From: Dipteris shenzhenensis
Taxonomy: Eukaryota
Reading direction: 5' to 3' (one strand)
DNA length: 64,000 nucleotides
Assembly: GCA_047967505.1 (NCBI GenBank)
Contig: CM106538.1
Shown: positions 5,241-63,900 of the stretch, one piece after another
Numbering within the stretch: position 1 is the first letter of the stretch
How the letters are laid out: each line of letters begins with the position of its first letter
Position numbers and translations under genes: made by a program
The notes under the pieces: model-generated
What the model was told of the DNA's origin: nothing
Seen by the model: the letters and a program-made list of their open reading frames with translations, nothing else
Database searches by the model: none

Positions 5241-7104
5241 ATGGATAGTACATCTTCTATTGCTTCTATTGCATCATTGTCACCAATAAAGGATCAAGAT
5301 TTAGCTACTATAGATCTTGATGATATAGGAGACTTTGAGATAGAACTAGAGATAGACTAATTTGGAATGTTGGACTTGGTTGGGGATGGAAATTTTGATG
5401 TAACTACCACATCTTGAATGATTTATCCTAGAAAAAGCTTGGTTGAGGATTAAAATATTGATATAAAGGGCCATATCTTGCATAATCTATCATGGAAAGA
5501 GCTTTGGTTGAAGATGAAATATTGATGTAAATACCCCATCTTGAATAATTTATCATGGACAGAGCTTTTCTTCCAAGTTTGCCAATTAACTCATATTTCC
5601 ATTATGTTAGTTCATTTTTGATTTCATCATGATTATGTTAAGGTATTAGAACCCAAGCTTGGTGTGAAACCTCTCAACATTTTAACCTTTTTTTAAATCT
5701 TTTTTTCAATCAAAAGTGCAAAGCGGTATTTTCATGGGAGGTATATACAACCGCAGTCTCAAAACATTTTAAATAGTTGTTAAATCGATATAGATGTTGA
5801 TATTACCATTGATATAGACACCATGTCTTATACCTTTGTAAATATCAAAGACTATGCCAATAATAATACTGATGAATATATATATATAAATATCATCGAT
5901 AACACCAATTGTTATTCTAATATATATATTGATGGAAATTTGGTTATTGATACTCTGCTATCATTTTTAAATGAAATGTCTTTTTTTAGTTGAAAATTTC
6001 TCCAAATACCTAAAATCATTGCAAATAGCTCTTGAAGGTGTAGTACTATTGGAAATCCTCTATGATGAACAACTACTAGTAATTAGTAAGAGAAATTTTG
6101 TAGCTATCATTTGTTTTGCCAAGTTTCCTTCAAAGCTAGAGTCATGAGAGTACTCCAAGAGGAGACAATCTCATTTGAGGCATGCATCTCCCTCTTTGCA
6201 TCCCTCACATTCTTGGTTAGCCTTTATTGCTAAGCCTTGAGGGCTAGTATAGACACTATTGCTCTAGAAGGAAACCTTTAATCTCCTATATATAGCAAAC
6301 AACATCCTTGGAGACGCCATAAAGCATTGGGTTATTGAAAGAAAGATACATGTGGAAATCAAAAAGATATTCTCCCATAGAAATTTTATTTGTATAACTT
6401 TGTTTGAATTGAGTGCAACTTAGCGTAGTATTTTTCTTTTATCACCAAGTGTGGTTGATTAGTTTCTTTTGTACCTATAGCATTGAGTGGAGATATTAAG
6501 CATACAAGGAAAAAGGTTCCCAAAGATTCGATATTGTGTCCCTCTCCACTAATTGATCTTCTCATTCCACAAGTATGCCTTAGTCAAGTGAGGCATCTCT
6601 CTCTAGAAAATCAAATTGCAAAATCCTATCTACACTTGTAACATAAATCTTTTGCTTGAATACTTTGGTATAACAGAGGAAATGCATCAAAAGAAAAAGC
6701 TTGCTGAGACCTTCAGCATTGTATTGAGGACAAGAATTGAGTACAGGGGAGGGTGCTTCCAAAGAGAAGGATGCAAAGAGAGTTAAGGAAAATTTGGTCA
6801 AGTTTTGGTGCTATGGAATGGGAAAGTGCTTAATAGTTCTTATTTTAGTTTGAAATTTGCAATTTGAGAGTGGTAATCAATACAGGGTTTGCCAAACTCA
6901 TTGCATGCTTCAACTCTTTTGACCCATCCTAAGCTTGGCATCTTGCTTAGAGATGGGAATGTTTAAATAGGCACATGCTCACGTGGATCATCGCATCTCC
7001 ATCTCGTAGCCTAGTTTCCTATGTTTAGGAGCAAAACGAATGACATCTTCACCATGCATCAAATGAATATTCAACTTGAAAATCTCCTCTTTATTATATT
7101 TCTT

Positions 7105-8277: not shown

Positions 8278-11200
8278 TGTTGAGATATGGTGCCATGAGC
8301 ACATAAATCAGAGGCTAAGGTATGGCGTAGGAATGTATTAAAGTAGCCACCCTAGGATGTGGACTACATGATGTGAATATGTGGAGCAAGGACATCCACT
8401 AGGAGAGATGTGGATCAGAGGATCCCACAAGTGTTAACTATTCTAAAGTCTCTCTCTATATAAGAAGCCTTCTTGTATTGTTGAACATATATTGCAATAT
8501 ATTGAGTGTGCCTACTTGTGTCTCCTCTCATGTCTTGTTTAGTGTTCTTTGAGCCTCCTTAGTTCTTTGAACTCAAGCTCTAAGCTTAGTTTTTAGTAGT
8601 TCATTAGTGTTGCTCATATGTCTAGTTCCTATCCCATATGGTAGAGGGTGAAGAGGTTTTCTTTTTGGTGCTTGGTATCCTGTAGTGTGAGCTATTACAT
8701 CTTTGAAGTTGAGTATATTCTTATGAGAAGACTTGAGTGAGAGTGAGTGATTTCTTCAATAAAGCTGCTTGTTCCTTTCATAGTTGGATAGTTGAAAAGC
8801 TTGCATTTGAGCTATTGTCTTAGAGCAAATTAGGAAAAGAAAGCAAGAAGCACAACAAGAAAATCTATTGATAGAAGCTACAGCAAGTAGCGCTATGCTT
8901 CAAGCAACAAATAGAGAAGAGCAACCATGAAACCACTAAGACATGGAGCCATTGACTTGAAAAGAAAGACTAAGTTTAGCAAGTAGCAATGCTGTAGCAA
9001 ATAATCGCACTGCAAAAGGTTCAAAGCTGATCAACAGCATGGGATTCAATGCTCCAACACCGCCAACGATGGCACACTATCTCTTCAACAACCCAAAGCT
9101 CCATCCGCTCTATTTGAGCCTTACCTCAACTCCCATTGTTGGTCACCATAACTATTGCCCGAGGTCTTTTCTCTGTGTTTTTGCTGTTGAAGTCCTCCTT
9201 GTCTTCAAAGTGCATACGAGCTTCCTACCACGATAATGCAAGCCACAAGATGAGGCTACTAGGCCATAGAAGAAAGCCAACATGTAGGACGTCAATGCAA
9301 ATCACACTGCAAGGACCAGCAAAACTAACAAGCCAGAGGTGACTAATGCAAACAACCAACCAAGATGATTTGAGGATTTACGATGATGGATGCAGACTCC
9401 AATGCAATCGTGACACACAAATCACCAACAGATGTAGCAAAGGCTTTGAACACGGTAGAGACCAACCCCCTACAATGCAAGATATGATGAGGTAGAAGGG
9501 AGATGGACAAACCTTGTTCTCAGTAATGTTAAAAGTCTCCATCGCAAAAAATCTGTGCATCTTAGAGCTTTGGCCACATGGAAATAACACGTGGCACATA
9601 GGGTTAGCTAGTAGATAGGCTTAGATAGAAGTTGAGTAAAGGCTTGGTTTAGATTTGGCCACTTGGAAGTTTTTATCTATAGTGCTACATCAACATGCCG
9701 CGTAAGTAGTGCCAACTAAGTAGTCATCCCCTTACTAAGCACAATTTGTAAGCTCCTTGTGAACAATCTCTCCCACATCATCAATTGTCCCTCTTCTTGA
9801 TTATAACTTCGACAAGCCATAACTTTCAATCCAAAAAGAATTTGCAAGCACTCCAAAAAGAAAAAATAACCGGTTTTTTGAGTTCTACGTGCTTGTGAAG
9901 TCAATTGTGTTATATGCAATTAGACATTGCCAGATTTGAAAGTTTCTTAAACTGGCAAGATCTTTGCAATGGCAATTCGTAACCCAATGGTTGAGAAGTT
10001 TACTAGGGAAGGATTTCACACCTAGTCTACATGAATGAGGTATCTCTTGATGCATAAAAAGCTTTGGAAGACTATAAAAGAAGATATCCACTACACAAAA
10101 TGAAGCTTGGAAAGAAAAAGATGAAGCATCACCATCACTCATTGGCTTGCTTAGGTCCAAACACAATTCATCACATAGACTCTAAGGATCATGCCAAGAT
10201 GCACAAGATGAGTTGATGAACACAGTGTTTGGTGCAAAAGTAAAGCACTAAGAAATTCATCTTAAGATTGAATTCTATGGTTTGTACATGAGCCTCAATG
10301 AATCCATGGCACAATTTGTCAACAAGATCAAAAGCATTATGACCCATTTAGAAGGCATAAATGAAAAAGTAGGAGAAAAGGATGCACTTGCAATCCTTCT
10401 TAAAAGCATGCTTGAAGAGTACAATGCACTAACAACCACCTTGAAGAATCTTTCAGATCCAAAGTTTGAGAAATGTGTATCATCTCTTCTTGATAAAAAA
10501 AGAGATTTGAAGGCATCGACATCGACATCCACATCAACATGCAGCAACAATAATGAAGAACAAGCATTGTTCAGTAAAGCATCAATAAAGTGTTACCATT
10601 GCAAAAGGATAGGTCACTATCAAAGTGATTGCAGACTAAAGAACAAACCAAAGTGTCACCATTGCAAGAAGTTGGGACACAAAGAAGAAGACTTCAGGTT
10701 GAAGAACTAGTATGTCAACTACATGGAGTCATCATCAAGCCCTAAGTAGAATGACAAGAACAACATGTATTGAGAAGCACAAGCCTTTCCACATTTAGCC
10801 TCTGCTCTTGTGATCAAACTTGACCACCTGCAAGTAGCCATGTAAGCACTTAGGGGAGGTATTGACATGTAAAAACCACACTTGACCACCTTAAGTAGCA
10901 AGGTATGCATTAAAGGAAGTTGATTGATTTGTAACTCACATCTTTTCACCTTGCAATAGCCAATGGTTCATGGCACCAAGGGGAGGTGTTAAGATATAGT
11001 GCCATGAGCACATAAATCAGAGGCTAAGGTATGGTGTAGGATTGTATTAAAGTAGCCACCTTAGGATGTGGAAAACATGATGTGAAGATGTGGAGCAAGG
11101 ACATCCACTAGGAGAGATGTGGATCAAAGGATCCCACAAGTGTTGACTATTCTAGATGCTCTCTCTATGTAAGAAGCCTTATTGTATTGTTGAACATATA

Positions 11201-11329
11201 TTGCAATAGATTGATTGTGCCTACTTGTGTCTCCCTTTCATGTCTTGTTTAGTGTTCTTTGAGTGTGCCTACTTGTGTCTCCCTCTCATGTCTTGTTTAG
11301 TGTTCTTTGAGCCTCCTTAGTTCTTCGAA
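8278..11329 (+). mobile_element. Non-autonomous gag-only LTR element (TR-GAG-like)
   Basis: Direct LTRs start TGTTGAGATATGGTGCCATGAG (8278) and TGTTAAGATATAGTGCCATGAG (10987). PPT AGGGGAGG precedes the 3' LTR. The internal region holds Copia-type gag only. The 3' LTR has a ~47-bp internal duplication and loses homology near 11329. Confidence 0.85.
9985..10710 (+). pseudogene. Copia-type gag with two zinc knuckles
   Basis: Degenerate EKFT..GFHT and AWKEKDE N-terminal motifs. ORF 10282..10710 has a UBN2-like ESMAQFVNKIK...LLKSMLEEY segment and the knuckles CYHCKRIGHYQSDC and CHHCKKLGHKEEDF, then a stop. Confidence 0.85.
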
Positions 11330-11493: not shown

Positions 11494-13860
11494 TTAGTTC
11501 AAGACTCTAATATCTATATTTGACACATGATGTGCTTTTTGATCTTCTTCTTTGGAATCAGGCTCTTGTGCATATGCATCTGCAAATCCAGCTGACCAAG
11601 GTTGTAGCCACCACTTCGAGTCCTCACCCTTTGGCTTCATATGCAAACGTTCACACATTTCATGAGCACTTTTCAGCCCTTTCTTCAAAGCTTCAATGAT
11701 TTTATCATCAGTTGAGACACAATTATAGTCTCCTAGATTAGCTTCCGGCATGTTCTCTTTGAGATTCAATTCCCTCTAGACGTGTTCTTGCTTCTTATGT
11801 GCCCTTGTAAATAAGGGACTACCCTCTTTACATTCAAAGTGTGCAAGCCTGTTCAGACTACCAGCACTATGTAGCATGTCCATCAAGTCATAAGCACGTT
11901 CATGTCCCATCATGCTTCCAATCTTACTAAAGAAGATTTCAACTGCATCTGATCCTGTAAGATTTAAAGGGCACCTAAGGCTTGGACAAAATTCTCTAAA
12001 GTACTTTATTAATAAGACCACAAAATGGCATGATATTTGTACATCTAAGAAATCCTCCTTAGTTATATGAAATTTCTATTCAATGTATAGTGTGTATGAT
12101 GAACACAATCCAAGACCTCCAATTCTGGAAGAAAAAGGAAACTTTGCCTGCAAGATGGACTTGGTCCACAAGGCTTAAGTGCGGAGACAAAAAGATGTCA
12201 ATGTAGTCTTTGGAAATTTCAAGGTAAGCTTGTGTTCCCAACATGCTCCTCTCTTTTCTATGCATTCCATTGTTTGCCAATTCCCCGAAACACCATTGCA
12301 CTTGTCTACTACATATCCTTTGAGCTCCAGCCCGGCTCCGGCTCCAGCTCCAGCCCAATTTTGGCAGTCATCTCGTCTAATATCTCCCTCCCTTAGCATA
12401 TGATTGTCGATGGAAAAAGCATCATACACAATAATAATATGATTTAAGGTGATCCAAACATTGCCAATAGCCAACTGACGCTTAGGCTTATCAAGAACAT
12501 TGACTAATTTTTTCCCATTATGTACAAAGTCTTGATCATGTGGTCCACAAACTTCATTTTCTAAAACTTTTGCTGAGAGTGTCCATCCATCCCATTTAAT
12601 CCTAAATCTACTATCTTTTTTGTCTACATAGTCAGACATCATTAATGTCCTTCGCCAACTATCACCATTAGATGCATGCCCAATAATTAGACCAAGTGTG
12701 GGCTTCAGCTTCTCATTCCATAAGTTGCCAATGGCATCCCATTGCTTGCTAACAAAGCTTGCATCAAATCGATTGCAAGTGCAATGAAGTGCCACAACCA
12801 AGCATGGGAGGGCATCATGTGATGGATTAGCAAGGAAAACTCTTGCATGTCCACCAATGACACAATTCTGAAAGGCATCAATTTTTTTCTCATATCCAAT
12901 TTGTCCTTCTCCCACTTTGATCATGCATGTAGTCATACACTCATGATCATCTGATTTATATCCATCAAAACCCACAAGTGTGTCATCTTTTGGATTTCAC
13001 CTACAAGTAGTAATGAGCATGAGTTAGTAAGTTCATTTGCAAATTCTCTTTAATTTAAAAGAAAATTTTAGATTAAGAAAATTACTGTCATAAAAAAGAG
13101 CATGATATGATTACCTTATTCTCTTCTTTATGGCAATTTCATCTTCCACTAAGCTGAAGGTGTTGAGATATCGAGCTCCACTCGTGATATGCCAAGATGA
13201 CCATTGTGCATTTATGTCACCGATTTGTTAGCTGCAGATGCGGTTGGTACATCGCCCATGAATAATAGCTGGATGATAGCTATCTTTATGTACTCTAGTT
13301 AGTGGCTCAATTAGTATGCCACGTTAGTTAGTTGAGTTTGGTTTGAGACCCACATATAGGGTTCACCTATTCTTTTGTACTTAGAGTTCTTTTGGCTTTC
13401 ACAACTAAGAAGAGGAAAACTGTTTTCAGCCTCCACCTTTGTGAATATTCCCCCATTGTGTATGTGAAAAAGCTGCAAGTGAGACTCCTTCCTTCTCTCC
13501 CACTCTCTTTATAGAAGGGAATCTTTGACATGATCCCATGCTTTTCTTTCTCCTTTCTATAAATTTCAGCAAGTGCATCAAATATATACTCATGTATACC
13601 TGGTACAAAGTGGGTTGCAAGTCTTTGCCCTCGCTTTGTTGTTGATAAAGAAGGTCCGTTGAGATTGGAACTCAAGAAGTCATGTAACCTTGGGCCTCCC
13701 CACATTTTTGCAACCTCAAATATTGCCTTTGTATTCTCACTATATCTTTGTCCTATCTATATTTGTAGAGCAACATCTTGTAGAAATTCCCATAAGGCAG
13801 CTTTACCACCAAAGTTTTCCAACCTATGGGCTTCAATTATGTTTGTGCAAAATCTATTAA
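11494..13860 (-). pseudogene. P-element-superfamily-like (THAP9-like) DDE transposase, disrupted and intron-containing
   Basis: Motifs in order: GPRLHDFLSSNLNGPSLST, SLVEDEIAIK, GHASNGDS, QDFVHNGKKLVN, DCQNW, TGSDAVEIFFSKIG. A GT-AG intron runs 13114..13001. The gene is interrupted by a solo LTR, frameshifts and stops. Confidence 0.7.
13161..13513 (+). mobile_element. Solo LTR of Copia family 1 with 5-bp TSD GAAGG
   Basis: Full-length match to the LTR at 15825-16177. GAAGG lies at 13156-13160 and 13514-13518. No PBS follows. Confidence 0.95.
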
Positions 13861-14034
13861 CACACTATTCAAAATTTTTGGACTTGTGTAAAGTCCAATT
13901 TGAGAAATGGACTAAAAAACAGTCCAAAATTTTTGAATATACTAGTAATGTTGTTTTTTGAACTAGATTTGACAACTCAAAACAAAAGATTTGATGATTA
14001 AGTACTAAGAACATCAATGCATAACCGAATCTCT

Positions 14035-14290
14035 TACAAAGGTGGTCTACATAAACATCTTCATAACTTCTTATGAATTGAGCTACTATCACCTAAGAAC
14101 ATCAATAGATGACCAATAATAGATGACCAATTCTCTGAGAAAGGTGGTGTAAATAAACACCTTTATGTATAAGTGGTGTGCACACACCTTTATGACCATT
14201 TCTTTTAGAAAGGTGGTGTACATAAACCCCTTAGAAAGGTAGTGTAGATAAATCCTTTTATGTGTAAGTGGTGTACATATACACCTCGGT
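14035..14290. repeat. Cluster of AAAGGTGGTGTA / ACACC motifs in both orientations (possible subterminal repeats)
   Basis: Several copies of (AA)AGGTGGTGTA and AAGTGGTGT alternate with ACACACC/AACACC. Confidence 0.55.
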
Positions 14291-15824: not shown

Positions 15825-18800
15825 TGTTGAGATATCGAGCTCCACTCGTGATATGCCAGGGTGACCGTTGTGCATTTATGTCACCGACTTGTTAGCTGCA
15901 GATGTGGTTGGTACACCACCCATGAATAATAGCTAGATGATAGCTATCCTTATGTACTCTAATTCGTGGATCATTTAGTATGCCACCTTAGTGAGCTGAG
16001 TTTGGTTTGAGACCCACATATAGGGTTCTTCTATTTCTTTGTACTAGAGTTCTTTTGGCTTTCACAACTAAGAAGAGGGAAAACTGTTTTCAGCCTCCAC
16101 CTTTGTGTGTATTCCCCCATTGTGTATGTGAGAAAGCCGCAAGTGAGACTCCTTCCTTCTCTCCCACTATCTTCACATGGTATTAGAGCCTGGTTCGTGG
16201 TAAGGAGCTCAAGAAAGCAAACCAAGTTCATGGTGTCCTGGTAAGAGGACCAGTGTTGCCTTCCTTTTTCGAGTTTGGGAGCAAATCTCTGTAGGTAGCA
16301 CAGTCAGAAACTGCAAGAGTGCATTGTCTCAGATTAAGACGCCCTTCGCGGTGTGGCGAGAGGGAAATATATGCTGCGAGAGGAGGCAAAGCCCTTGGTG
16401 ACTTTATTTTTTTGATTCGAGGCATTTCGGGGCCCGTTTTGGAGGCGGAAGTTCTCCGAATGCTGTGCGACCACTACTCTATAGGTCAATGAAAAGTTAC
16501 CATAGAAATTGCATCGTATGCTTGTGCGCAGAGATATTGGGAGTTACTGAATCATCCTTATTGCTTGTTGATGCAAAATCATCACTAGGAAGTGACACTT
16601 GGTCAAATACCACTTTCGTCAGTTTTGCAGATTTGCCCGTGTGAGGCAGAAGCTGTGTTTTTTTGCAGTGACAGAATATTTTATAGTGTTCTGTACTGGC
16701 GTCTGATTCTCCTTCACAGATTGTCACTGAAAAGCTTGACAAGAACAACTTCCAAGCATGGAAGTTTAGAATGACGAATTTCCTTATGGGAAAAGGCTAT
16801 TGGGAGTTCATTACAGGAAATGAAGAAGAACTAGTTCTTCCTAACGTTCCCAATCAACAAGAAATGCAGGCATTTAAAGGATGGCATGAGAGAGCAAGAA
16901 AAGTTATGTACTGGCTGTCTATCAGTATTTCAGATTCTATGATTGTGCATATTTAGGATGCAAGTACGCCAAAGGAGGCATGGGATACTTTGGCAAAAAT
17001 GTACAGCAGAAATACGCAAGCCAGGAAAATGCAGATCAAGCAGGAGTTGCACAATGTGCAGAGAGAAAATATGAGCATCAATGACTACCACATGAAGGTG
17101 AAGAAAATTACAGATGCACTTACTTCCATTGGGTCGCCAGTGGAAGATGATGATCTAGTTTCTGTGACCTTGAATGGTCTAGGAAAGGATTATGCACAGT
17201 TTTGGACATCCATTGCCGTCCTAAAAAATTTCTTGATTTTGAGGAGTTGTTTCTCTTCTAATTTCTGAAGAGCAGAGAAATGGTGGTGCATCTTCTTCAA
17301 GAGGAACTTCAAAAGAAATTGTCTTCTACTTAAATGCTCGAAGAGGTAGAGGCAGAGGTAGAGGAGGCCAATCTGGAGGCCGTGGTAGAAATTAGAATAT
17401 GCAGCAAACTCAAGAAAACCAGTCCTTTGGAGGAGGACGTGGTAACTCTAGAGGCAAGGGGAGCCAAAGAGGTCGTGGTGGATGGCAGAGAGGCCAAAAT
17501 GCAAACAGCAATGTCGAATGCTACTATTGTGGTAAAATGGGTCATATGGCTAAAGACTGCTACAAAAAGCAGAATGACATTATGAATGGAAAATTGCAGC
17601 AAGGCAATTATGCATCCTCTAGTAGACAGGGTGATATGAGCATTTGTTTATGGTGTAGCACATGACCCATTCTGTGACAAGTGCAGAAGAAAGTAATGAT
17701 GTGTGGTATGTTGACTCAGGTGCATCAAACCACATGACAGGTCATGCAGAATGGATGCAGGATGCAAGGAAAATGGAAAGACTAGGATTTGTGGAGATTG
17801 GTGATGATACTGCACATCCTATTGTGCAGATTGGTAAAATTCCTTTGTCTATGCAGGATGGGAAAAAGAAATACCTGTTTGATGTATTTCATGTCCCGAA
17901 TATCACCAAGAACCTGGTTTCTGTTGGTCAAATGGTTGAGTAGGGCTTGCAGGTCAGATTTAATCCTCATGGATGCTTTGTTGAGGATATGAAAAATAAC
18001 GGTCGCTTGATAGCAAAAGGAAAAAAGAAGGGCAGGATGTTTACATTGGATGCGGACATGCTTGAATTGAGTGCAGCAATGTTTGCACATGGGACCAGTG
18101 TAGTTGCAAATATTGATATCTGGCATGTCATGTTAATGTACAGTGACTTAAATCAATGCAGGCCCAAAATATTGTTGCAGGATTACCTAAATTCAAGGTT
18201 TCAGAAATGCATAAGATATGTGAAGCCTGTCAATTTGGAAAATAGGCAAGGAAACCATTTCCTAGACATGTTCAAGAGAGTAAGAAGCCATTGGAATTAA
18301 TCCACTCTGATGTGTGGACAACTAAAGCTGCATCTATTGGAGGCTGTCATTATTTTGTCACTTTTATTAATGACTACAGCAGAAAAGTTTGGGTGTATTT
18401 TATGAAAAAGAAAAGTGAAGTGTTTGGGCACTTCCAAGATTTTAAAGCTATGGTTGAAAAAGAAACAAGCCTGCAAATAAAATGCCTAAGGTTAGATGGA
18501 GGGGGAGAGTACCTCTTAAATGAGTTTGCAAGGTTCTTGCAGGAGCATGGCATAAAGCAGCAATATTCATGCAGTCATACCCCATAGCAAAATGGACTTG
18601 CAGAAAGGAAAAACTGGCATATTGGAGAGGTATCTCGGGCCATGCTAAATGAAAAAGACCTACCAGACTATTATTGGGTTGAAGCAGTTGCTACAGCGGT
18701 TTACATAATGAACAGGACTCCCACTGGCGCAATACATGGCATGACACCAAAGGAGATGTATACTGGTAGGAAACCAGATATTTCTCATTTGAAAATTTTT

Positions 18801-60929: not shown

Positions 60930-63900
60930 CGCTATCCACATCAACAAGAAACTCAAAAATATATACAAGTGACTCTTGTACCAACCAACCCTCGGCCATG
61001 CTACCTTTGGGTCTTGCATTTTGTCTCACGAAACCCTTCAAGGTCTTCATGAAGCGCTTGAGGAAGAACAACCATCATGCATGTACAGTACCGCATATAG
61101 CAATCTCATCCACCAAATGGACTATGAGATGTAGTTGGCTTGTGAGAATAGAACGTGGAAATGTCTCCTCTACTAAACAAACCACCTCCACTGACATAAC
61201 TCGAGCATTCTCAAGCATGGTGGGATCTATTTCCTTTGAGCTCACATACCTAGAAAGGAAAAAGTATGCAATATTAGCAATATGAACACCTTGCATCTTG
61301 TAAAGTACCTCACAAGCTCACCCATCTTGTAAATACAATATTCAGATTTTGTATCTTGTAAAGTACCTAACAAGCTCACCCATCTTGTAAATACAATCCT
61401 TCACGTCCTTCGATGCACTCTGAGAAATGCTAGTAGGTAGTATGAACTAAACACATGAGGAATGATTAAATAGTTGCTTCTAATTCAGTCACAAATTTGG
61501 AAGGAAAAAGATTTTATGCACATAAAATACTTACTTGGAGCATCTTGTGCCAATCATGAGATTTCAAGCCATATAATTTCTCTACACCTCTTTTCTTGCT
61601 CTTTGTGAAGGCCCCCTTCAAGCACCTCATGTATCCAGTGGGAGTATGATAGCTCGCTTCACTGCCACCATCTCTAACTTTGATAACCTCCACGGTGCAC
61701 AAGGTAAAAAGACACGTCCATTTGGCCTCTCTTGTGGGCCAAGCTTCATGCATCCTCCCTATGGTACGTAGATCCTTTCTTATGCCTGCGAAATCTCATG
61801 TCCCATTTAAATGTTCCCAAATGGTAGACGCCACATTCTTGAAGATATGCATGGGATCAAGCAGGTGATTATGGGACCAATATGGTAAACGATAAAAGAT
61901 GGAGTATCTAAACAAAAGCTGGTGTTAGCAGTCAATCTTTATTTCCAGCCAATATAGCACACAATAGCTACAAACCCTTACCAGTTCATGCCAAGTGGTG
62001 GAGTTGTGGATCCGTCCCAAATTCTCATCCAATCTCCCGCAGTGAGTGACTATGGGGTGACTGCATTCCAAGGGGCGACATCTAAGATGATCAGGTGGGA
62101 GAAATCAATGGTGGTTCTCATAGATGACCTTATTCAATGCATCTGCCTATGAGGCAACTAGTGAAGGACCACAAACAGGACATCCATGGTAACCTGATGT
62201 AGTGAGACTTGAACAATAGATGCAATTAAGAGTTCAAGGTGGGTTTAGGGTGCCACATCGATCGCCTACTCATAATTAAAAGTGCAATGCTTACTTGAAC
62301 ACTCGCCATAGCCTGGGAAGTCATGCATCATCCACATCAAGACTGCTTTGTAGTTGATGTCTCGTGAGATGAGGGAGGCCTGCTCACATCATGCACCTCG
62401 ATACCTCTCCAAAGTATCTCTAGCTCGTCGTCAATCAAAGGCTCCAAATAAACATCAGGATTTTTGGCTTTATGTTTCCCTGGAATTAGAAGGGATAACA
62501 TAACATGTCCTTTCTTAATCGCCATAGAGGGTGGAAGATTATAATTCACCAATATCATTAGCCATACACTGTAAGAGGTGCTTTTGAGACCAAATGGGTT
62601 CACAACATCCATACCCAATCCAAGTCTCAAGCTCCTAGGTTCTTTCTTGAAGCTTGGCCATGTGTCTTCAATATGCTTCCACACAGGAGTGTCTACAGGA
62701 GTTCTCCACTTGCCATCGGTTGATCGATGGGAGGAATGCCATGACATGAGCTCTACAATGGATTTGCACTTGGACATATGTTGGATGTGAGGGATTATGG
62801 GAAAATGTCGCAGAACCTTACAAGGCACATCCAAAGTTTTGAGATTTGCTCTATATCTTGCCTCTCCACAAGTAGGACACTCTCTTTATCCTTATGTTGT
62901 CCACAAAACAGAACGCAATCGTTGACGCATGCATGGATGCGCTTGTAATCTAATCCTCCAAGAGGTCACATGTTGCCTTGCTATATCTCTTGAGGTCGGT
63001 AATTTATTCTCCCTTGGAAGCATTTTACGCAATAGCCTGCACGTGAAGACCATAAATTAGAAAAAGCATTCGAGTAATTGACCCACTATCATAATTCACC
63101 ATGTTTGCAAAATAGACTTTAAAGCTTACTTGAGTAATGCATTCACGAGGGATTCACTAGTAGTAATAAGGAGATGTCACCTGCGTGCAATAAATATATG
63201 AAAATTCCTCTTATCTATCCCCTATTTATGGGACCTTACCTTATAAAATGTACCTTCCTTCCCTTATATAACCCCCCTCCCTTACACTCACATGGTACCG
63301 TGTGGTACCGTACGATAAACCCTAGTGGACCCCCCGGGAATGTATTCAAACTTGCATTGCTCCATCCATAGATGGTCTGCAAGTTTAGTTACTCAAGGGA
63401 GGCACGTAGAACATAGAATATGCACCCCTCAAACAGTGGAGTCGGTGCTGCGGTAAAAAGATCATCTTGCTCCATGCTATCATCCCTACCTAAGGATTGA
63501 TGGACATATAAATCCCGCCTCATATCATCAAACACCCCCTCCTCCACGGCCTCATGAGGTAATGGCAGAGGGCTACTATCACCATCACTCCATGCATTCG
63601 TAATGGTCCCTCTTGAAGATCCCACCTCATATTGCCGACGCTTCGCCTCCTCATGACGACGAGCATAGGGCAACATATGTGGGTGTCATCCTGTACCAAA
63701 TTAAAATGGGATCATAACTCAAGCACATGAACAACCATATGTATCTCAATCAATCTTAACTCTTTAACACTTACCATGTTTATGGTTGCATCCCATTCTC
63801 CATACTTTGAGACGTGATTGAGTGTAATTCTACATGCACGATACATGTTTCCTCGACATCGATCACACATACATTTGATTTTTTGCTCCAACCACATTTT

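Follow-up and report, generated by a model that had tools for sequence, protein, structure and literature searches.

A decayed transposase gene of Dipteris shenzhenensis, probably a remote structural relative of the P element and THAP9 transposases

A stretch of 64,000 nucleotides (nt) from Dipteris shenzhenensis (contig CM106538.1 of assembly GCA_047967505.1; the whole stretch is referred to here as the window) contains a decayed transposase gene, located on the minus strand at positions 11494-13861. What survives is an internal piece of a cut-and-paste DNA transposon, and this relic is dead and without function. It probably derives from a transposon whose transposase is related, remotely and at the level of structure, to those of the P element and THAP9, and P is the closest known kind for the family to which it belongs. 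A preliminary description, made from the letters of the window, had proposed a divergent P-superfamily transposase. A fold match, a catalytic signature, and inverted ends with an 8-base-pair (bp) duplication agree with this proposal, but membership of the superfamily at the sequence level was not recovered.

A 273-residue open stretch of the relic (12178-12996, minus strand) takes in the larger part of its RNase H-like core and runs into the helical insertion domain. This stretch matches five proteins of Adiantum nelumboides (best E 4e-93, 66% identity). When the search was widened it returned 38 proteins, one of which belongs to the liverwort Riccia sorocarpa, and the liverwort Calypogeia fissa was added with a profile; the relatives from these named organisms are all annotated only as “hypothetical” or “unnamed”. 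A profile of 20 relatives retrieved 3913 cluster representatives at E<=1e-3; the number falls to 2169 when the threshold is set at 1e-10, and to 602 at 1e-30. The ten clusters that were looked up carried no informative names. A metagenome scan (alignment A2) gave 62 loci, in two of which the reading frame is uninterrupted (1520 residues in L008, 1517 in L010). Intact relatives are 1100-1500 residues long and share the same order of parts, with N-terminal Cys/His-rich segments that probably bind DNA, a helical region, an RNase H-like domain with an insertion, and a beta-rich C-terminal domain.

The fold was modelled with AlphaFold for P0006, a relative of 1122 residues, from 33 sequences, and for P0010, the Riccia protein, from 43; both alignments are shallow, and confidence in the core is high. 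The predicted local distance difference test score (pLDDT) of the P0006 model averages 77 and exceeds 90 at most positions between ~340 and ~860. In a Foldseek search against the PDB its top matches were the Drosophila P element transposase structures 6p5a_A (E 1.0e-10) and 6pe2_A (E 1.6e-10), with a template modelling (TM) score of 0.68 when normalised to these chains of 442 and 456 residues, followed by RAG1 (E 2e-4, TM 0.37), Hermes (E 1.7e-3, TM 0.23) and Transib (E 2.4e-3, TM 0.42). The P0010 model (pLDDT 82, predicted TM score 0.80) likewise matched 6p5a_A (E 9.5e-9, TM 0.68), then Transib (E 2.8e-3, TM 0.44) and Hermes (E 0.1, TM 0.23), although the two models are not independent, since most of the alignment is common to both. 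Transib and RAG1, the second-best structural matches, share the RNase H core and an insertion domain with the family, but with TM scores of 0.3-0.44 and E-values five to six orders of magnitude worse than those for P. Transib elements make 5-bp target duplications. The nearest solved enzyme is therefore the Drosophila P transposase, as the preliminary description would lead one to expect, and not a hAT, Transib or other DDE (Asp-Asp-Glu) transposase. The resolved P chain comprises helix-turn-helix, RNase H, insertion and C-terminal domains according to PMC7776569. A TM score of 0.68 across the whole of it indicates that the superposition extends beyond the RNase H core.

The catalytic signature of the family is consistent with this match. 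In P0006 numbering, all 33 of the relatives compared carry D389, D509, D556, H559 and E746, and 29 of these 33 carry D743. In the model D389 lies in a strand (384-392), D509 follows a strand (503-508), D556 precedes a helix (557-569) and E746 lies within a helix (743-752); this is the pattern (beta-1, beta-4, after beta-5, alpha-4) given for D230, D303, D339 and E531 of the Drosophila enzyme (DmTNP; PMC8230255). As the preliminary description implied, the family is predicted to have an RNase H-like fold bearing D, D, D(2)H and E, with the D(2)H motif placed right after beta-5 as in P. Between this motif and the catalytic Glu the family has an all-helical insertion (helices from 557 to ~730), and the span measures 190 residues compared with 192 from D339 to E531 of DmTNP, whereas the first and second catalytic Asp are 120 residues apart in the family and 73 in the fly enzyme (PMC8230255). 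The insertion may correspond to the GTP-binding domain of P, just as the helical region that precedes the catalytic domain is predicted to resemble the P helix-turn-helix. The GTP-binding residues given for the fly insertion domain are D528, K385, K400, V401, S409, F443, D444 and N447, D528 being one of those that contact GTP (PMC7776569); of these, D528 alone was given a counterpart by position in the family, namely D743, which precedes the catalytic Glu by three residues as D528 precedes E531 (PMC7776569, PMC8230255). The list of P/THAP9 motifs in the preliminary description was largely right, but its “xDG” for the second Asp was imprecise, the family having S-D-G-D and the relic S-N-G-D.

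Element ends were sought at the metagenome loci. The inverted ends of L008 match perfectly over 26 bp (192-217 and 6262-6287); they start CTCGGGGGGGTCAC and give the element CT...AG as its termini. They are directly flanked by an 8-bp direct repeat (GTTTTCAT) and enclose the intact 1520-residue frame. With a full frame, perfect ends and a perfect duplication, copies of the L008 type look, as far as their sequence can tell, intact enough to be active. Across 41 loci scanned for a direct repeat of 6-10 bp adjoining 14-bp inverted ends, with up to three mismatches, L008 was the sole perfect case, and the other matches were AT-rich with two or three mismatches. L010 has inverted ends similar to those of L008 (CCCGGGGGGAGCACT). 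The contigs of L001, L002 and L003 are >99% identical over the element and diverge after a common right end (...GTGGAGTCCCCGGG); comparison of the copies L001-L004 gave no left end, the left side finishing in ACACA-type repeats. In an AT-rich group (L017, L022, L024, L025 and L037-L044) copy comparison gave no ends, the flanks also being similar. Further inverted-repeat candidates were set aside, those of L024 and L025 as AT-rich and lacking a duplication, that of L057 as a palindromic hairpin, and those of L022, L029 and L034 as short and lacking a duplication.

Ends of the same kind are found in the window itself. A non-coding element of 195 bp (63144-63338, with no strand assigned) has inverted ends CACGAGGGATTCACTAG and CCCGGGGGGTCCACTAG, matching at 13 of 17 positions, and is flanked by the 8-bp duplications AATGCATT (63136-63143) and AATGTATT (63339-63346), which agree at seven of eight positions. 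Its ends resemble those of L008, L010 and L001, and from this resemblance only we infer that it may derive from the P-like family; its interior matches none of the family loci. The combination of inverted ends and an 8-bp duplication is drawn from two cases, L008 and this window element, the relic itself having no ends. The 195-bp element lies in a decayed CACTA (En/Spm-type) transposase gene on the minus strand (62337-63685), in which 62340-62885 matches Pfam Transposase_21 (E 1.1e-34). This CACTA gene is interrupted by stops as well as by the 195-bp element. The motif at 63321-63338 was also considered as an end of the neighbouring CACTA element, a reading that was rejected because a left arm and the 8-bp repeat lie 195 bp away, inside the CACTA gene.

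These observations bear on whether the relatives are mobile elements at all. If they were instead host genes, forming a domesticated transposase family, the window copy would be a pseudogene of one of them. Most relatives are annotated merely as hypothetical proteins, some members are fused to chromatin-reader domains (Tudor-like or a PHD finger), and in the AT-rich loci similarity runs past the gene without clear element ends, all of which would suit such genes. Against this, at least ten different Adiantum proteins occur on different contigs, many of them fragments or chimeras, inverted ends are present in L008 and L010 and a target duplication in L008, L001-L003, near-identical over the element, part company at a common right end, and the window copy is heavily decayed among nested retrotransposons. 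We therefore regard host genes as a most improbable explanation; the relatives are multi-copy, one of them with inverted ends and an 8-bp duplication, and are not the single-copy genes without terminal inverted repeats that would have spoken against the preliminary description.

Several results weigh against a relationship with P. None of the Pfam P/THAP9 models (PF12017, PF21787, PF21788 and PF21789) passes its curated cut-off with any of the proteins scanned. The five window pieces gave no transposase match to Pfam, the only match at E<=1 being a chance-level one to Bac_globin (E 0.12); nine long relatives gave no P-related match, and there was no match for either of the full-length proteins of L008 and L010. 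Searches of the PDB sequences with a single protein, and with profiles built from 20 and from 33 relatives, retrieved no transposase at E<=10. The superfamily criterion of Repbase is convergence in iterated sequence searches of the PSI-BLAST type (PMC4455052); because the profiles miss the P transposase among the PDB sequences, such convergence with P was not observed, and placement inside P and placement as sister to P both stand. No Pfam scan of relatives detected a THAP domain, although THAP domains are restricted to animals according to PMC7776569, so their absence may not be defining elsewhere. L010 has no duplication matching its ends, which makes L008 the only coding element with both ends and a duplication. 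Finally, neither model had a Kolobok, Dada or MuDR structure among its PDB matches, and the fold match to P does not by itself discriminate against these three superfamilies, since none of their structures came up.

It could be argued from this that the family constitutes a separate superfamily, which shares a distant ancestor with P and is P-like only in its fold and the length of its duplication. Besides the silence of the sequence profiles and the Pfam cut-offs, its domain make-up would fit such a view, with no THAP domain, Cys/His-rich N-terminal segments, a beta-rich C-terminal domain and the wider spacing of the first two Asp residues. The family also differs from P and THAP9 in its length of 1100-1500 residues and in inverted ends that start C-Y-C-G-G-G-G. 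We nevertheless consider a separate superfamily unlikely. Some members show weak matches to two different P-specific Pfam models: PF21787, a P-like RNase H N-terminal domain, in four of the five Adiantum proteins (best E 2.6e-4, 21.7 bits against a cut-off of 24.6), and, also below threshold, PF12017 in two of 33 relatives (best E 6.4e-5) and in one of 43. The comparison with P/THAP9 profiles that the preliminary description had in view thus yielded matches, all of them below the cut-offs. The ten best named language-model neighbours all carry P/THAP9 domains. For the P0006 core, named neighbours do so from rank 2 onwards, with 204-209 shared features and scores up to 0.95, a value reached by about one in 100 shuffled proteins, and the neighbour at rank 1 has no common Pfam family; the neighbours of the 273-residue window stretch are rotifer clusters in which PF21787 occurs in 17-25% of members (scores 0.92-0.95). 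The superposition of the whole resolved P chain at a TM score of 0.68 and the 8-bp duplication, as in P (PMC7776569), also argue for a connection with P itself.

Transposases of hAT, Kolobok, MuDR, Dada and P all have a C/D-x-x-H motif that follows the second Asp and precedes the Glu (PMC9587614, PMC3706591), and the family might accordingly belong to one of the first four superfamilies. This is very unlikely, even with the Kolobok, MuDR and Dada structures missing from the PDB matches. hAT elements also make 8-bp duplications. The hAT transposase Hermes has the RNase H fold, an insertion domain and the C/D-x-x-H motif in common with the family, but it matches the models poorly, with a TM score of 0.23, and neither the hAT dimerisation domain (PF05699) nor a MULE Pfam domain was found in 76 relatives scanned as alignments. 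Kolobok, whose DDE transposase carries C/D-x-x-H and is related to those of P, hAT and MuDR, is described as having TTAA duplications, 5'-RR/YY-3' termini and, in nearly all lineages, a zinc finger after the motif, and as known from animals, fungi, green and red algae and protists but not land plants (PMC9587614). None of these traits is seen here: L008 has the 8-bp duplication GTTTTCAT and CT...AG termini, and no Cys or His column is conserved in the family alignments between D556 and E746. Dada, also a DDE transposon with D-x-x-H, is reported to lack inverted ends, to make 6-7-bp duplications and to target small RNA genes (PMC3706591), in contrast to the 26-bp inverted ends and 8-bp duplication of L008.

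A more novel reading is possible, although on balance doubtful: the relic may be the trace of an unclassified, deep-branching sister group of the P superfamily that is THAP-less, has transposases of 1100-1500 residues with a C-terminal domain resembling chromatin readers, is widespread in non-seed land plants (ferns, liverworts and perhaps mosses) and other eukaryotes, and has C-Y-C-G-G-G-G ends, 8-bp duplications and short non-coding derivatives in the same genome. On the reading that we prefer, the family transposase, for which catalysis, DNA binding and any use of GTP are what we infer, would bind inverted ends that start C-Y-C-G-G-G-G, would excise the element and would reinsert it with 8-bp staggered cuts, leaving an 8-bp duplication. 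The beta-rich domain at ~920-1090 of P0006, which is absent from the window copy, has a weak Foldseek match to mouse DNMT1 731-1602 (3pt9, E 2e-2, 223 columns), one relative has a PTM/DIR17-like Tudor domain and another a PHD finger. The Tudor, PHD and DNMT1-like matches are hints of chromatin-guided targeting.

The relic in the window retains only the region corresponding to residues ~266 to ~860 of P0006, as aligned by tblastn, having lost ~265 N-terminal and ~260 C-terminal residues; relaxed tblastn with eight relatives found no further piece of the gene anywhere in the 64-kb window. The most upstream surviving coding piece (13515-13861, minus strand, as are all pieces of the relic) is equivalent to P0006 residues 266-384 by tblastn and alignment, and represents the helical region preceding the catalytic domain. 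It contains an in-frame TAG (13757-13759) with a small deletion adjoining, and its homology ends at ~13861. A short exon, SLVEDEIAIKKRI(R), follows at 13115-13155 and includes the first catalytic Asp (codon 13141-13143, equivalent to D389 of P0006). Downstream of the intron discussed below, a TGA stop (12997-12999) occupies the position of a conserved Trp (R-W-N in relatives) and precedes the 273-residue open stretch. Within the latter the second catalytic Asp is replaced by Asn (codon 12667-12669; SNGDS compared with SDGDS in the family), a substitution that three of the 20 sequences in alignment A2, P0001 among them, also show, and the D(2)H motif is intact as DFVH (12520-12531). The first frameshift is due to a short repeat of the GCTCCR type that interrupts the coding region (~12324-12356); it is followed by a frame-shifted piece of the insertion domain (AQRICSRQVQ...FFFQNWRSWI, 12083-12331). 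The second and third frameshifts both lie between ~12063 and ~12110. The piece with the third catalytic residue, GSDAVEIFFSKIG (11779-12075), has the Glu at codon 11938-11940 and the Asp three residues before it; it ends at a TAG stop (11776-11778) that stands in place of a Trp (EHVWSELN in relatives). The last surviving coding piece (11497-11775) loses homology to relatives at ~11512, and the C-terminal beta-rich domain is absent.

In total the relic carries three in-frame stops and three frameshifts. The TGA at 12997-12999 and the TAG at 11776-11778 both replace conserved Trp codons, as would be expected from G-to-A decay. The window copy cannot work, as both protein ends and the element termini are missing and the rest is broken by stops, frameshifts, the Asp-to-Asn change and the insertion of a long terminal repeat (LTR). 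All peptide strings quoted in the preliminary description are present on the minus strand, and the asterisk in its peptide is the TGA at 12997-12999. Its reconstruction of one continuous protein by removal of the LTR and an intron stands at the junctions, which fit the relatives, but two more stops and all three frameshifts had escaped it, as had the Asn at the second catalytic position and the loss of both ends of the protein.

The LTR is a Copia solo LTR of 354 bp (13161-13514, plus strand) inside the transposase gene, ~90% identical to the 5' LTR of a nearby Copia element, and it is flanked by the 5-bp target duplication GAAGG at 13156-13160 and 13515-13519; the preliminary description had recognised both the repeat and its duplication. 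When the LTR and one GAAGG copy are removed, ...KIPF is joined to SLVEDEIAIKKRIR (SLVEDE), which fits the relatives, where this junction reads KIPFILVEDETAIKKRIRW (KIPFILVEDE).

The intron, a 114-nt GT-AG intron in phase 2 (13001-13114, minus strand), lies between an Arg codon, which it enters after the second base, and the conserved Trp codon. Its GT and AG borders, its A+T content (75%, compared with 60% in the next exon) and a counterpart in one relative support the intron as originally proposed. The counterpart is found in L019, a distant relative, which has a ~116-nt GT-AG intron (L019:600-717) at the same codon and in the same phase (AG/gt...ag/A TGG) that must be spliced, as this is needed to keep the frame. 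L026, a relative of L019 from the same sample series, precisely lacks the intron. Among the 49 loci with a match around the junction, 44 run through uninterrupted (37 by the spanning criterion and seven more), and four of the 49 have a 1-nt frameshift nearby. L019 is not the closest relative of the window copy, being 43% identical to it compared with 52% for L001. Judged from these sequences, the intron would be either old and often lost, or gained twice at an AG/G site. The preliminary description had taken the intron as a sign of long residence in a nuclear genome; comparison indicates that the intron is real, but since it is absent from 44 of the 49 relatives examined it says little about the length of residence.

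Further repeats and retrotransposon pieces surround the relic. A 48-nt unit in tandem duplication (96% identical) occupies 11211-11306, just downstream of the end of relic homology. The Copia element whose LTR resembles the solo LTR starts at ~15825 on the plus strand, with its 5' LTR at ~15825-16178 followed by a tRNA-Met-type primer-binding site (TGGTATTAGAGC), and has gag-like frames from ~16690. Between the relic and this element there are four copies of a 41-nt direct repeat (14021-14258; 66-100% identity to the reference copy), and a further gag fragment of Copia type, separate from that element and bearing a CCHC zinc knuckle, is located at 10255-10710.

The remark in the preliminary description that the P superfamily is not known from land plants fits one review from 2022, which gives six superfamilies of transposons with terminal inverted repeats in land plants, P not being among them (PMC9033089). 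For fungi, reports of P are confined to Pucciniales and Allomyces (PMC5751038), and distant P homologues are reported from Amoebozoa and one stramenopile (PMC3985635). Our literature search, in which sources were available in part, returned no description of P-like transposons in ferns, bryophytes or land plants, and a Repbase entry for them may already exist. The window genome, Adiantum and two liverworts thus hold a P-like transposase family that is annotated only as hypothetical proteins. The family is large, as judged by its cluster representatives, yet invisible to Pfam, so that annotation pipelines for plants and metagenomes will leave it unnamed or call it a host gene. As a distant comparison it may help to tell whether the helical insertion, the Asp that precedes the catalytic Glu and the 8-bp stagger are ancient in the P and THAP9 enzymes, and its apparently intact copies could be tested as new transposon tools.

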